From: Dictyostelium discoideum
Lineage: Eukaryota
Direction: 5' to 3'
NCBI GenBank assembly: GCA_000004695.1
Contig: CM000153.2
Span: forward strand, 1,792,001-1,856,000
Length of the DNA: 64,000 nucleotides
The translations under genes and the position numbers were made by a program. Each line of letters starts with the position of its first letter. The first letter of the stretch is position 1. The notes beneath the pieces were generated by a model. It was not told the origin of the DNA. It did no database searches and saw only the letters and a program-made list of their open reading frames with translations. Positions 10,342-35,184 of this stretch are shown here, piece after piece.

Positions 10342-10372
10342 CCGACGATATATGGGTAGGCGAAAAAAATTT

Positions 10373-10445
10373 CGCCCAAAGGGGGGCTCGAACCCCCGAC
10401 CACAAGGTTAAAAGCCTTGCGCTCTACCGACTGAGCTATCTGGGC
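10373..10445 (-). tRNA. tRNA-Lys (anticodon UUU), 73 nt
   Basis: Reverse complement of 10373-10445 is GCCCAGATAGCTCAGTCGGTAGAGCGCAAGGCTTTTAACCTTGTGGTCGGGGGTTCGAGCCCCCCTTTGGGCG. The acceptor stem has 7 bp with one G-U pair. The D stem is GCTC/GAGC. The anticodon stem is CAAGG/CCTTG with loop CTTTTAA. The T arm is GGGGG-TTCGAGC-CCCCC. The ORF track's minus-strand ORF 10236..10502 is the tRNA being translated. Confidence 0.85.
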
Positions 10446-10477
10446 ATTTTTGAATTTTAAATTAAAAATAAACCCAA

Positions 10478-30785: not shown

Positions 30786-30821
<36 letters not shown>

Positions 30822-30956
30822 ATTATTAACTAAATTATTTTATTTAACTTTTTTGGAAATGTTTTAACAAAACATTTAATTTTTAGATTATTAACCTTTT
30901 GAAATTTCAACAATAGAATAAACATTAATAATTATTTTAGCAGATCTTTTTACAAT

Positions 30957-31078
30957 AACCAATCGATTGTTTCTTTATCTTTAATTGTAACAATCATATC
31001 ATTATCAATTAGATTTGAGGTAATTTCTTTCCATTTCTATGATGATTCATTACGTAAAATTGAATGTAATTGTTTTAG
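30957..31078 (-). repeat. Degenerate duplicate (about 92% identical, 120 bp) of an internal coding segment (32648-32770) of the adjacent 1068-aa gene, abutting that gene's stop codon
   Basis: Plus strand 30957-31078 accaatcgattgtttctttatctttaattgtaacaatcatatcattatcaattagatttgaggtaatttctttccatttctatgatgatt... aligns with 32648-32770 gccaatcgattgtttctttatctttaattgtaacaatcatatcattatcaattagatttgaagtaatttctttccatttcgatgatgatt.... The internal copy encodes SSSKWKEITSNLIDNDMIVTIKDKETIDWLS; the downstream copy carries an in-frame TAG (TCG to TAG). Confidence 0.6.
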
Positions 31079-34000
31079 TTACAGATCAATATTTTTTGGT
31101 TTTGATTTATAGAACATTATAAATGGTTCCAATTGGTGTTTATATTTTTTAAATAAGTAATCTATAATATCTTGCTTATCTGAAAAATTTTTGTATATAA
31201 TTATACCAAACCATTCAACCATATTAGATGATAATGGTTTATCCGAATAACAATTCTCTAATTCGTTTAAAACCCTGTTGTTATTCGAACCCTCTTGTTC
31301 ATCATTACCATTATGACTCTCAAATAAAGTATCTAATATAATAAATGATTCTAAATCAAATGTTTTAATTATTAATTTCAATACATTATATTCTAAAAAT
31401 GGTTTTTTTAAACGATTTTCCTTTCTGAATTTTAATTCATTTTCGAAATAATGTAAAAATAAATTAATTCTTGGATTATTATGATCCAAAAGTATTTTAG
31501 AAAATGTTTTTATATTAAGTCTAACTTTACCAATATCAATCACTGTTGAAATTATAAATTGGTATAAATCGTTATTATTTCTACTTGTAAATATGTATTC
31601 GAACGTATATACTGATGTATTTAAATTATAATAAAGTAATGGTCTTTTATCATCGCCACTCTTAGGATCTCTAAAAATGGTAATATATGATGCAATAATT
31701 GGAGATAATATTTTTAAATAATAGTATGAAATGTGAGCTGAACGATCTATTTCAATATAGTTTGATATTAATTGATGAGCTGTTTTGATTTGATCAATTG
31801 TTAAATTATTGACTCTAATTAACTTTAAATATAAGAAATTTAATATTAATGATAGATTTGGTAATGATAATTGACAATCTTTAAATTTATTAATTAAAAA
31901 TAGAATCATATCAATTAAATCTTTATATAAATATTTGGATGTATAGATTCTATCATGATTATGATCTTTAAATGCTTTTTCATTTAATATTAAATCTTTA
32001 TCAATTAAATTATCAAGAATAAATTGAACACCTTCAAAATTTAAAAGTTCGATAAATGTTTGCAATAAAAAAGAGGTTTCATTTGGAAAGTTATTGAAAT
32101 TGACTTTAATTTTAGAGAGATTGATTATTTGACATGTTTGTTGAGTTGGTATTTTGTATTCTTGGAATTTTTCATTTTCATGATAACCTGCTGAATAGTC
32201 CCAATTCTCTCCTTGATCGAGGTATGAGTTAATATAAAGCCTTCTTAAATTGTAATTTAAAGTTTTAATTACTAAAGTACCCCAACCAGTATAGTCCACC
32301 AATAACTCGTCTATAGAATCACAAATAAATCTTAGGTATTTCATTGAATTTCTTGAACCAAATTGAATTACTTGAATCATATAATACTTAAATAAATCTT
32401 TATTGTCATTAAAGTTTGATTGGTTTAAACCATTGATTAATGATTCAATATCATCATGAGTACGTAAAATGTGAATATTACACAACTGTTTATTTGAATC
32501 TAAAATTGGTAGTACTTGCTTAAATTTGATTCTTGCATAATCTAATAATTCCGATGTACTAAAATCAAGTTTCATTTGTTTTAATTTTGAATGTAAAGCA
32601 TTTCTTATATTTAAAATACTACAACCACCTGTTTCTATATCTGATAGCCAATCGATTGTTTCTTTATCTTTAATTGTAACAATCATATCATTATCAATTA
32701 GATTTGAAGTAATTTCTTTCCATTTCGATGATGATTTATAACCTAAAATTGAACGTACTTGTTTATTACCCAAATCATTAAGTTTCTTTGTTGATATTAC
32801 ATCATTTAGTGGCTTTTCATCAAAATATTCTATAATGATTGATTTTTGTGATGTGTAGATTTTGTAGAACATAAAAATATCGTTTATATTAATATGATTA
32901 TTTTTGAATAAAATATCGAAATATGATTCACAAATATATTTTGAATCTAATTTTCCAACATTGATTTTTAAATTTTTTTTCAATAGATACTTTAATATAT
33001 TGGTGTTATAGGTTTTTGTCATGTAATATATTAATAATAATTGAACTTCTTCATTGAGTTGAATGGTATCAATTGGTTCATTATATTTTTTTAAATAAAA
33101 TGCATATAAAATAATTGATTTTGATTCAATGATTAATAATTGAAATAATTGTTTAATTGATTGAGATATTGTACAACGTCTATGTTTACCATTTTCAATT
33201 ATTAAATCAATTTGAGTTTGAATTGATGCTGGTATACTTTTTGAATTACTATAATAATCATTGTTGCAATAATACAATTTAAAATATAATAAAACTGAAT
33301 TGATAGATAAAGAGATACACTCAAAATTTCCTTTAACATGTTTTATGTAGTTATAAATAGCATAATCAAATTCAAAACAAAGACTAGAAAGCATATTTAA
33401 ATGAATTATTCTATAAACAGAACGCCCAATATTTTCATTTCCCAGCTTATCAATAGAGAAAAAATCCCATGAAATTCCATTAGAGAGACTAAATCTTGTT
33501 TGAATATTCTTAAATCCAAAAGGTATTGATTTTTGATATTTTAGATAACAAGCTACATCCGCACCTCTATATATACCTGAAAATATTTTTTTGGAATCTT
33601 GAAATATTGAAGATGGCGATATTGGAATACTCGATATTATTTTCATCTTTTCTTTAAAATCTTCACTACTGATTCCATATTCACAATAATATAAACATTG
33701 ATTAATGAGATAATTTCTTTCATTTTTGGTTAAAGTAAATGGTTTATTATGATTGATGGACTCTTCAAAAAATTTTAAAACCCTTTTTATTAATTTTGGA
33801 TGATTTTTTTCGAAGATTGAGTCTATATGTGTTGTAATATTAAAGGTTTGCAATTCTTCTGGCCTATATTTTATATATATATCAAATAAACCCACTGATT
33901 TGATACCCCAAATCTCTCTGAATAAAATCTCTGGATCCTCTCTAGTATATAGATAACCCTTAAAAAGTAATAATGAATATACCTCTTTGAATACTTCTAT

Positions 34001-34285
34001 ATCTTCTATTTTATTAATGATTTCATTATATCTATCATCATTATCATAAGGATTGAAATCAACATTTCTTTCTATTCTCTTAAAAATTAAATTTTCATCT
34101 GCTTTTAATTTACATATCAAGAGTTGGTATTGTTTATGTTTTATCATTGAACCTATGGATGTAATTGTTTTAAATTTTTTACTTTTATGACAACATTTAT
34201 TTTTTAAAATATAACTTAATAAATATTTATTTTTAAAAACTTTCCAAAATAATAATTCATTATATTCATTATTCATTATTAACAT
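31079..34285 (-). CDS. Hypothetical 1068-aa protein (N/I/L/K-rich), no recognisable domain
   Basis: Single long open frame in very AT-rich DNA; the length argues it is real. Ends ...FYKSKPKNIDL*. I recognise no conserved motif. Confidence 0.55.
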   Translation of the reverse strand: MLIMNNEYNELLFWKVFKNKYLLSYILKNKCCHKSKKFKTITSIGSMIKHKQYQLLICKLKADENLIFKRIERNVDFNPYDNDDRYNEIINKIEDIEVFKEVYSLLLFKGYLYTREDPEILFREIWGIKSVGLFDIYIKYRPEELQTFNITTHIDSIFEKNHPKLIKRVLKFFEESINHNKPFTLTKNERNYLINQCLYYCEYGISSEDFKEKMKIISSIPISPSSIFQDSKKIFSGIYRGADVACYLKYQKSIPFGFKNIQTRFSLSNGISWDFFSIDKLGNENIGRSVYRIIHLNMLSSLCFEFDYAIYNYIKHVKGNFECISLSINSVLLYFKLYYCNNDYYSNSKSIPASIQTQIDLIIENGKHRRCTISQSIKQLFQLLIIESKSIILYAFYLKKYNEPIDTIQLNEEVQLLLIYYMTKTYNTNILKYLLKKNLKINVGKLDSKYICESYFDILFKNNHININDIFMFYKIYTSQKSIIIEYFDEKPLNDVISTKKLNDLGNKQVRSILGYKSSSKWKEITSNLIDNDMIVTIKDKETIDWLSDIETGGCSILNIRNALHSKLKQMKLDFSTSELLDYARIKFKQVLPILDSNKQLCNIHILRTHDDIESLINGLNQSNFNDNKDLFKYYMIQVIQFGSRNSMKYLRFICDSIDELLVDYTGWGTLVIKTLNYNLRRLYINSYLDQGENWDYSAGYHENEKFQEYKIPTQQTCQIINLSKIKVNFNNFPNETSFLLQTFIELLNFEGVQFILDNLIDKDLILNEKAFKDHNHDRIYTSKYLYKDLIDMILFLINKFKDCQLSLPNLSLILNFLYLKLIRVNNLTIDQIKTAHQLISNYIEIDRSAHISYYYLKILSPIIASYITIFRDPKSGDDKRPLLYYNLNTSVYTFEYIFTSRNNNDLYQFIISTVIDIGKVRLNIKTFSKILLDHNNPRINLFLHYFENELKFRKENRLKKPFLEYNVLKLIIKTFDLESFIILDTLFESHNGNDEQEGSNNNRVLNELENCYSDKPLSSNMVEWFGIIIYKNFSDKQDIIDYLFKKYKHQLEPFIMFYKSKPKNIDL

Positions 34286-35184
34286 TTATTATTATTAATA
34301 TTTTGAATATTTAAATATTGATTATTATTATTTTTATTTTTGTTTGGGTGAAAAAAAAAAAAAAAAAAAAAAAAAAGAAAAAAATGGAAAAAATGGGAAA
34401 TTGAAAAGAAAAAAATGAAAAAAAGAAAAAAAAAAAATTTTGTCTTAGATGCAAATAAATCTTTTTTTTTCTTTTTATCTTCAAAATTCATTTCAATGAT
34501 CAATTAAATTTGAATGAAAAATCTTTGATATATAAATTGAAATTTTATTTTATTATTAGAAAATAAAAAAAAAATAAAAAAAAAAGCTCTAAATTTAAAT
34601 CTTTTTTAACAAATAAAGATTTTTTTTTTTGACAATTAAATAAAATCTTTTTTTTTTTGACAATTAAATAAAATCTTTTTTTTTTTTTGTTTTTTATTTT
34701 ATTTAATATTATTATTATTATTTAATAAATTATCTCTTAAATGATTTTTAATTCATTTCGGTTATTATTATTTTATTATTTTTATTATTTTTTTTTCATT
34801 GGTATTATTTTATTAAATTAACAAATATCATTTATTTTATATTTATATTTACTATGTGGTAAAATTTATATCGATAAATATCTTTTTTTTTTTTTTAATG
34901 TTGTAAATTATTTAATAAATTTTTTTGTGAATGATTAAAAAAAAAGAAAAAAAAACAAATAATAAAATTAAAAAATAACAAAAAAAAAAAAATTATTACT
35001 CTATATTACTATTATTTTTTAATTGTTTTTTTTAATTATTTTTTTTTTTTTTTTTTTTGTTTTAATTATTTTATTTGGTCAGTCTTTAAATAAAAGTAAG
35101 AAAAATAAAAGGAGTTTTTTTTTTTTTTAAAATTTATTTATTTTCTGATTTTAATTACACATATTTTTAGTTTAATAAACAAAG

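Follow-up and report, generated by a model that had tools for sequence, protein, structure and literature searches.

The repeat beyond the stop codon of Dictyostelium discoideum DDB_G0284279 as a very probable relic of a second module

Directly downstream of a 1068-aa gene on the minus strand of the Dictyostelium discoideum DNA analysed here (64,000 nt, "the window", to which all positions refer) lies a segment closely resembling part of that gene's own coding sequence. How did a piece of the gene come to stand beyond its own stop codon? The sequence-only reading reported a repeat of ~92% identity between 30957-31078 and 32648-32770. The repeat itself held, but its coordinates were ~2-3 nt out of register: a blastn comparison of 30800-31200 with the window matched 30955-31075 to 32644-32764 at 113 of 121 bases (93.4%, no gaps, E 1.5e-48), and a repeat search extended the pair at lower identity (86%) to 152 nt, 30955-31106 against 32644-32795. 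The two copies are spaced by exactly 1689 nt, or 563 codons, and are in frame with the ORF at 31079..34285 (minus strand). In 30-nt windows, the identity reaches 0.83-1.00 solely at this offset; the null has a mean of 0.33 and goes no higher than 0.70. The internal copy (32644..32795, minus strand, with its high-identity core at 32644-32764) encodes SSSKWKEITSNLIDNDMIVTIKDKETIDWLS inside the ORF, as had been described, and it is here that the C-terminal module of the gene begins (NKQVRSILGYKSSSKWKEITSNLIDNDMIVTIKDKETIDWL). The TCG to TAG change ascribed to the downstream copy could likewise be confirmed, at 31039-31037. That copy does not, however, start just past the stop as first thought, since the weaker similarity crosses the stop codon and covers the ~9 terminal codons of the ORF, as far as 31106.

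The ORF is identical at 1068 of 1068 residues to DDB_G0284279 of D. discoideum AX4 (Q54PU8), and consists of an N-terminal half and one C-terminal module of ~560 aa. With 31 homologs at E<=1e-205 (47-100% identity), the protein is, by homology over its full length, a member of an uncharacterised DDB_G0284279 / DDB_G0276559 family. The family is confined to the D. discoideum complex: a profile search of 1.84 billion representative proteins gave 21 matches and no homologs outside the complex, except for two D. purpureum fragments of 76 aa each that match only the N-terminal ~60 aa. A D. purpureum ortholog, sought as a comparison, was not found, and the SDR locus of that species has different neighbours and no family gene. 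Pfam searching of the protein returned no domain, only a sub-threshold DUF3850 hit (E 0.024), and none of the family homologs carries a precomputed Pfam domain. The AF2 model is all-helical but too poor for a fold search (pLDDT 55, pTM 0.37). In the literature, neither DDB_G0284279 nor DDB_G0276559 is named in any paper that our search retrieved, and a general search gave no relevant result. Comparison of the N-half with the C-half of the protein detected no significant internal repeat; a weak 29% match of the C-terminal 41 aa to aa 455-495 was discarded as merely the flank of the module junction.

Family members occur as N-C, N-C-C' and N-C-C'-C'' forms, with numerous fragments besides, and a member that is intact in one strain may be broken in another. 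Their main tandem cluster is found on the 8.48-Mb chromosome, whereas DDB_G0284279 stands alone on the 5.45-Mb chromosome. The motif KWKEI.SNLID.D.I.TIKDKETIDWLS, which marks the start of the C-terminal module, is invariant in 20 aligned family proteins, and the downstream copy in the window (hereafter the stub; 30955..31078, minus strand) codes for the same motif with one stop in it. In the gene frame, the stub reads LKQLHSILRNESS, a stop, then KWKEITSNLIDNDMIVTIKDKETIDWL.

The counterpart of the stub is found in the longer members of the family. When the long proteins were split before protein comparison, in order to expose their modules, DDB_G0276559 (AX4, 1615 aa) and other long members proved to carry the C-terminal ~560-aa module twice. 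The modules of one such protein, P0002, are 64% identical over 575 aa, and module-to-module identity in the long forms is 64-69%. The long paralogs DDB_G0276559, P0003 and P0005 run through HQLEPYIIYYKLK.NNKSIT..QLHSIL...SSSKWKEITSNLI...KDKETIDWLSDIETGGC into a second full C-terminal module, and some long paralogs reach a second or third module past the equivalent junction. These long forms, namely DDB_G0276559 and its strain equivalents ACTFIT_004386, ACTFIR_006386 and ACTFIZ_010145, are also the closest paralogs of the window gene, with 69-73% identity as against 58-68% for single-module members. The C-half of the window gene is 76% identical to module 1 of DDB_G0276559 and 60% identical to module 2.

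The correspondence extends to the DNA. A single blastn HSP of 3554 columns (84.0%) joins 34491..30955 of the window (minus strand) to 9851..13250 of L006, which is the DDB_G0276559 equivalent from the same genome as the L005 locus discussed below; AX4 DDB_G0276559 itself was represented here by this near-identical strain's 1615-aa protein, which falls in its 90%-identity cluster. This HSP spans ~200 nt of 5' flank, the ORF, the stop codon and the stub, and its end coincides with the final base of the stub. The part of the 5' flank still homologous to that of the long paralog (34286..34491, minus strand) would mark the upstream end of a duplicated block, whose boundaries are set by paralog homology alone. 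The 156 nt made up of the gene end and the stub can be aligned over their whole length, at 81-85%, with each of the two module junctions in the long gene of ACTFIR. At the other limit, 30954..30955, identity with the long paralog continues as far as GATTGGTTAT and unrelated sequence follows: the window reads GATTGGTTAT / TGTAAAAAGATC, where every intact copy reads GATTGGTTAT / CAGATATAGAAACAGG. The window block and the first 3.4 kb of the ACTFIT equivalent are thus colinear (84% in DNA, 73% in protein), and the linker and module-2 start of the long genes correspond to the gene end and the stub. The long genes, however, extend ~530 codons further, through a full second module and, in ACTFIR, a partial third, whereas the window retains just ~125 nt of the second module, disabled by a TAA and a TAG.

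We consider it very probable that the stub is the pseudogenised first ~125 nt (the linker and ~30 codons) of a second C-terminal module, left in a truncated partial duplicate of a long-form gene. The sequence-only reading had raised truncation of an ancestral longer gene as one possibility, and this has been borne out: the long paralogs read through the junction, the window is colinear with them, and homology stops where the stub ends. Some members of the cluster (DDB_G0276559 and its equivalents) owe their N-C-C' architecture to an old tandem duplication of the ~560-aa module within the gene. In the proposed history, the window locus would have been founded by a ~3.5-kb partial copy of such a long-form gene at the DNA level, which begins ~200 nt before the ATG and breaks off abruptly 125 nt into module C'. 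Copying probably went from the cluster to the lone locus, as cluster membership and the truncation suggest, and was probably DNA-mediated.

The first stop made by the truncation can be read directly from the sequence (ETIDWLL and a stop, 30950..30952, minus strand), and it is there that the truncated ORF would have ended before stops arose upstream. Two of these then cut the leftover from the protein. The present TAA (31079..31081, minus strand) lies in the inter-module linker within a TAACT motif; this motif occurs in the long paralogs too, where it is read in a different frame as ATA ACT (Ile-Thr), a frame detail that depends on the alignment. The TAG (31037..31039, minus strand) stands where all functional copies have a Ser codon (TCG, TCA or TCT) and predates the split of the sampled lineages. 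The first coding-strand AATAAA after the stop, 235 nt downstream at 30839..30844 (minus strand), is a candidate poly(A) signal, and the stub probably sits within the 3' UTR, presumably as inert sequence that is eroding through different deletions in each lineage.

This erosion can be followed in other strains. The syntenic loci of ACTFIW and ACTFIR share the same 3' junction but keep only the last ~25 nt of the stub, having lost 102 nt and 5 nt in two deletions; the window's junction, GTTAT/TGTAA, stands unchanged in L001 and L002. At the syntenic locus of ACTFIY ("cf. discoideum"), where the gene copy has been shattered by multiple deletions and an inversion, only the first ~57 nt of the stub are left, the TAG included. 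Because ACTFIY keeps the 5' part with the TAG while ACTFIW and ACTFIR keep the 3' end, the full stub with its TAG is ancestral to the sampled lineages. An allele with an empty site was looked for and not found, ACTFIY holding the shattered copy. The sequence-only reading had proposed that orthologs ending at the same position, with no similarity downstream, would count against it. Orthologs in two strains do end there, with only ~25 nt of downstream similarity, yet that rule would have misled, because their short state results from the secondary 102-nt deletion.

The alternative that survives best is a variant of the same history, in which the copy at the lone locus had both modules in full to begin with, and the rest of module 2 was deleted afterwards together with the original 3' flank. 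Deletions are frequent at this locus, as the strains just described demonstrate. In addition, private changes in the core of the stub number just 3 over 121 nt, which is somewhat few for non-coding sequence since a duplication now 16% diverged and would fit a spell inside a longer ORF; the stub may have remained coding for a time, or undergone gene conversion. Against a later deletion, the window holds no further remnant of module 2, the flank beyond the stub matches orthologous loci only and bears no similarity to the 3' flank of the long gene, and the breakpoint is common to, or compatible with, all four sampled lineages. Truncation at the time of duplication and truncation by later deletion predict identical present-day sequence, and we regard the later deletion as possible, though on the doubtful side.

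Ectopic conversion would be a different matter. Here a long-form paralog would have overwritten the 3' end of a single-module gene, spilling ~125 nt of module-2 sequence beyond it. Similar paralogs are numerous, the segment from KWKEIT to ETIDW is nearly invariant in DNA, and stretches of this kind lend themselves well to conversion; the low number of private changes in the stub is also compatible with it. However, homology to the long paralog is uniform (84%) along the whole 3.5 kb, from the 5' flank through the ORF to the stub, the 3' end contains no younger tract, and the C-half of the gene resembles module 1 throughout. A conversion tract must also be bracketed by homologous sequence, which the 3' flank does not provide. 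This explanation is therefore improbable.

Selection on the stub as a functional element, either a regulatory sequence of the 3' UTR or a C-terminal extension reached by readthrough, might likewise be suggested by the scarcity of private substitutions and by the lack of any frameshift relative to the ORF. Two in-frame stops nevertheless precede the end of the stub. Most of the stub has been deleted in ACTFIW, where the ORF is intact, and in ACTFIR, and a different part has been deleted in ACTFIY; these complementary losses across lineages argue against constraint, and we find a selected role very unlikely.

The plain reading of the observation is a recent local event, such as replication slippage, template switching or templated break repair, that copied ~120 nt from 1.7 kb upstream to a site past the stop. 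High identity, the same strand, the in-frame offset and the proximity of the copies all favour it. The distribution of substitutions does not. The stub and the internal copy of its gene differ at 8 sites of the core. At 5 of them the internal copy has a derived base, found in its orthologs in two other strains as well, so that these changes predate the strain split, and at all 5 the stub has the family consensus; the changes at the remaining 3 are private to the stub. No derived state is exclusive to the stub and the internal copy, and the stub core is nearer to the copies of other paralogs (95.0%) than to its own gene. The 5' part of the stub and the gene end before it are colinear with the module junctions of the long forms rather than with the internal context, and the stub is older than the split from ACTFIY. 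The 93% identity of the repeat mostly reflects family-wide conservation of the motif, and the duplication is old, belonging to the two-module architecture of the parent and not to a recent copying of the gene's own segment. The relic resembled a local self-duplication because the parent gene had itself undergone an internal tandem duplication of the module, and we give a local origin very little credence.

A processed retrocopy was considered and rejected. Like a retropseudogene, the window gene lies dispersed, on a chromosome other than that of its parent, and shows no introns; the parent is itself a single ORF, so that intron loss cannot be scored. The ~200 nt of 5' flank were duplicated with the gene, the copy ends inside the coding region, and no poly(A) tract follows the breakpoint (TGTAAAAAGATCTGC...). 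A tRNA scan for the context of a retrotransposon target found one distant tRNA-Lys only. Finally, although AT-rich, repetitive Dictyostelium DNA is generally hard to assemble, nothing specific was found in favour of an assembly artefact, which can practically be dismissed: 8 of the 121 positions distinguish the two copies, partial remnants lie at the same place in three more assemblies (L001, L002 and L007), and L005, which was assembled independently from a near-identical strain, has every base of the stub while departing from the window at other places (by 1 mismatch and by 5 gap positions over 7.2 kb).

The stub thus falls into the general class of relic pseudogene fragments at the boundary of a duplication or deletion, here in a truncated (partial) dispersed gene duplicate. 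It shares with such duplicates the abrupt end of homology, the disabling mutations, the lineage-specific erosion and the orthologous position in related strains, and differs from the typical case in that the relic repeats a segment of the same gene. What the locus displays is ordinary gene-family decay, and it reveals no new mechanism or functional element. One could speculate that the family, young, fast-evolving (dN/dS 0.5 overall, ~1.2 in one region), variable in copy number and modular, is one in which the most conserved ~100 nt of DNA, at the module start, favour rearrangement, module gain and loss, or ectopic exchange, as is often seen in genes shaped by conflict or diversifying selection, such as those for allorecognition or defence. 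Breakpoints cluster round this segment only because the examination was centred there, and we hold the suggestion to be improbable.

For annotation and for the history of the gene family, the odd self-repeat at the 3' end of DDB_G0284279 is explained, very probably, by the gene being a dispersed, truncated copy of a DDB_G0276559-type gene with two modules. The analysis also documents a previously undescribed family of the D. discoideum complex, in which a ~560-aa module is gained and lost and whose decay varies from one wild strain to another.

The sequence-only reading had noticed a repeat immediately after the stop codon of the gene at 31079..34285 (minus strand), and this repeat is real. 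By blastn, 30955-31075 matches 32644-32764 at 113 of 121 positions without a gap (E 1.5e-48), and a repeat search stretches the pair to 152 nt at 86% identity (30955-31106 and 32644-32795). The location first given for it stood, although the register was off by 2-3 nt, and the placement just past the stop holds for the strong match only, with weak similarity reaching across the stop to the ORF's final codons. The TCG to TAG change in the downstream copy and the peptide encoded by the internal copy (32644..32795, minus strand) had been read correctly. Compared in 30-nt windows, the two copies reach an identity of 0.83-1.00 when offset by exactly 1689 nt, and this drops to background at each neighbouring offset (~0.33; maximum 0.70 among 20,000 random pairs). 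Since 1689 nt equals 563 codons, the downstream copy, here called the stub (30955..31078, minus strand), lies in the frame of the gene. That frame reads ...KSKPKNIDL-stop-LKQLHSILRNESS-stop-KWKEITSNLIDNDMIVTIKDKETIDWLL-stop, the stops being the gene's own TAA (31081-31079), a TAG within the stub (31039-31037) and a TAA past it (30952-30950), all on the minus strand.

The ORF is identical at 1068 of 1068 residues to D. discoideum AX4 DDB_G0284279 (Q54PU8), on the 5.45-Mb chromosome. The 31 proteins recovered by a homolog search all come from assemblies of D. discoideum or "Dictyostelium cf. discoideum"; no Pfam domain was found in these 31, and a Pfam search of the window protein gave no match above threshold. 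A profile search of 1.84 billion representative proteins yielded only 21 matches, and those whose source was looked up belong to the same species complex, except for two 76-aa D. purpureum fragments that match the N-terminal ~60 residues only. The AF2 model of the protein is almost wholly helical, at low confidence (pLDDT 55, pTM 0.37), and a literature search found no mention of DDB_G0284279 or DDB_G0276559. Most AX4 members are on the 8.48-Mb chromosome (DDB_G0276401, DDB_G0276403, DDB_G0276409, DDB_G0276487, DDB_G0276501, DDB_G0276547, DDB_G0276559, DDB_G0271218 and DDB_G0271262), making the window gene a lone copy elsewhere. The family's N-terminal ~60 aa (window 34100-34285, minus strand) carry the motif LFWKVFKNKYLL...KSKKF...HKQYQLL, which weakly matches (E ~1e-5) the short DDB_G0273369/DDB_G0273683 and two partial D. 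purpureum proteins, and which may be more widespread than the family.

A typical member has 1020-1100 aa and ends soon past ...KHQLEPY..YYKLKLLNQK... Four longer members, P0002 (AX4 DDB_G0276559, 1615 aa), P0003 (1630 aa), P0005 (1483 aa) and P0019, have the KWKEI/ETIDW motif two or three times. Their junction, ...HQLEPYIIYYKLK(I/L)NNK(S/T)IT(NN/DK/DE)QLHSIL...SSSKWKEITSNLI...KDKETIDWLSDIETGGC..., continues unbroken into a second C-terminal module of ~560 aa; the two modules of P0002, at aa 485-1032 and 1042-1613, share 64% identity. The window sequence KSKPKNIDL-stop-LKQLHSILRNESS-stop-KWKEIT... matches this junction in length and order. Module number differs between strains and paralogs. For example, P0003 (ACTFIR_006386, L003 10001-14980) has three module starts, with KWKEI at aa 511, 966 and 1468 and internal deletions in modules 2 and 3, and P0019 (ACTFIY_003939) has two.

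Over its full length, the 156-nt stretch of gene end plus stub aligns with each of the two module junctions in the ACTFIR long gene (81-85%). In a single colinear blastn HSP (3554 columns, 84.0%), the window minus strand from 34491 to 30955 matches 9851-13250 of L006, the locus equivalent to DDB_G0276559 in the genome that also provides L005. It begins ~200 nt before the ATG and, after crossing the ORF, its stop and the stub, breaks off at the final stub base. At this sharp breakpoint, the pairwise alignment has the common ...GATTGGTTAT followed by TGTAAAAAGATC in the window versus CAGATATAGAAACAGG in the long gene, with no similarity to the long gene beyond. We could not find further pieces of module 2 across the window, and the sequence on the far side of the stub has matches only at orthologous loci in other strains. 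The closest paralogs of the window gene are the long forms (69-73%, versus 58-68% for single-module members), and its C-terminal half is 76% identical to module 1 of P0002 and 60% to module 2. Long paralogs that continue past the junction and are colinear with the window up to the breakpoint support one of the alternatives offered earlier, namely that a longer ancestral gene was truncated. Ectopic conversion of the locus by a long paralog is unlikely, given that divergence is uniform over the 3.5-kb block and that the far side of the stub is without homology. The ~200 nt upstream of the ATG (window 34286-34491, minus strand), alignable with the long-paralog 5' flank (L006 9851-10000), contain ATGAATTTTGAAGATAAAAAGAAAAAAA..., the start of a small ORF; this flank could be a shared promoter, 5' UTR or upstream ORF.

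At the syntenic ACTFIW (L001) and ACTFIR (L002) loci, both with the same SDR gene downstream, the gene ends in ...KSKPKNIDK-stop and the 3' junction GTTAT/TGTAA is unchanged, with ~25 nt of the stub left by a 102-nt and a 5-nt deletion. At the syntenic ACTFIY locus (cf. discoideum, L007) the gene is shattered into pieces corresponding to window 32091-31910 (inverted), 31882-31442 and 31216-31124; the stub's 5' ~57 nt are retained (window 31076-31021, 91% identity), with ATCATAGAAATGGA including the TAG, and its remainder is gone through a different deletion. Erosion is thus lineage-specific, and the complementary remnants across the three loci place the full stub and its TAG in the common ancestor, the shorter states being secondary. 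These deletions in other lineages, together with the two disabling in-frame stops, make it unlikely that the stub is a functional element. What remains of the family gene at L007 6883-7617 is fragments, flanked by the SDR gene and, upstream, a 993-aa gene; the ACTFIY lineage is losing its lone copy. In D. purpureum (GL871151.1), the SDR ortholog is 76% identical, but its neighbours are a cysteine dioxygenase gene and a Roco-type kinase gene and there is no family gene at the locus, so synteny is not conserved there.

Three things contradict recent slippage or templated copying of the gene's own segment: diagnostic sites, the stub's age and the existence of closer paralogs elsewhere. Across the family, the DNA of the 121-nt core hardly varies. 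Two sequences match the stub at 95.0%, the module-2 start in the ACTFIZ long gene and the long paralog's first-module copy in the same genome, against 93.4% for the internal copy of the stub's own gene. Five of the eight differences from that copy are changes in the internal copy, common to its ACTFIW and ACTFIR orthologs (CAAGTACGT for CAATTACAT, TTATAA for TAATGA, GGCTAT for GGTTAT). The other three, TAG included, are private to the stub, and among the core differences compared no state is common to these two copies alone. The high identity of the repeat points neither to a recent copy nor to conversion from 1.7 kb upstream; it is best explained by motif conservation, probably aided by strong AT-biased codon usage, and by only modest decay. 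An assembly artefact is excluded, since an independently assembled near-identical strain (L005), which over 7.2 kb departs from the window by 1 mismatch and 5 gap positions, carries the same stub base for base, and remnants occur at the syntenic ACTFIW, ACTFIR and ACTFIY loci.

We infer that a partial duplication carried a long-form gene from the cluster to the window locus; the co-copied 5' flank, the lack of a poly(A) tract and the end inside the coding region point to a DNA-mediated copy. Either the duplication itself cut the copy 125 nt into module 2, or trimming to that point followed soon after. At first the truncated ORF would have run to ...ETIDWLL-stop at 30952-30950, and the linker TAA would then have cut it back to the present ...PKNIDL-stop. 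Within window 31076-31095 (minus strand), this TAA sits in a TAACT motif, which long-form linkers have out of frame (ATA ACT). In the alignment, on which this reading depends, the window seems to have 2 more bases before TAACT and 2 fewer after it, indels that would return the stub to its original frame. The first coding-strand AATAAA past the stop is 235 nt downstream (30844-30839), so the stub is probably in the 3' UTR.

In the window, L005 and ACTFIW the ORF is intact; that of ACTFIR falls into at least four frame segments, and in ACTFIY it is fragmentary. The longest open stretches of the ACTFIR ortholog (L002 6001-9177) are 387, 351 and 325 codons, and its annotated 1009-aa product requires "introns" to join frame segments; it is probably a strain-specific pseudogene, or else the assembly has homopolymer errors. 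Between the window (31082-34285, minus strand) and ACTFIW (L001 6001-9171), dN/dS is 0.53 overall, 1.18 in codons 200-400 and 0.20 in codons 400-600, around the conserved motif, which indicates weak or uneven constraint. With dS at 0.094 and 3' intergenic identity to L001 at 94.8%, these "D. discoideum" strains differ considerably at the locus. The only tRNA in the window is tRNA-Lys(UUU), at 10372-10446 (minus strand).

L006 6030-6462 and L004 9309-9512 are unannotated family-gene fragments, found between annotated genes beside long paralogs, and correspond to residues 126-274 and 989-1056 of the window protein; the family cluster is littered with relics. In a fast-turnover family of the D. 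discoideum complex, a partial gene duplicate has left the stub as an ordinary relic. The family is hitherto undescribed, and the relic is a fresh example of a familiar kind of thing.
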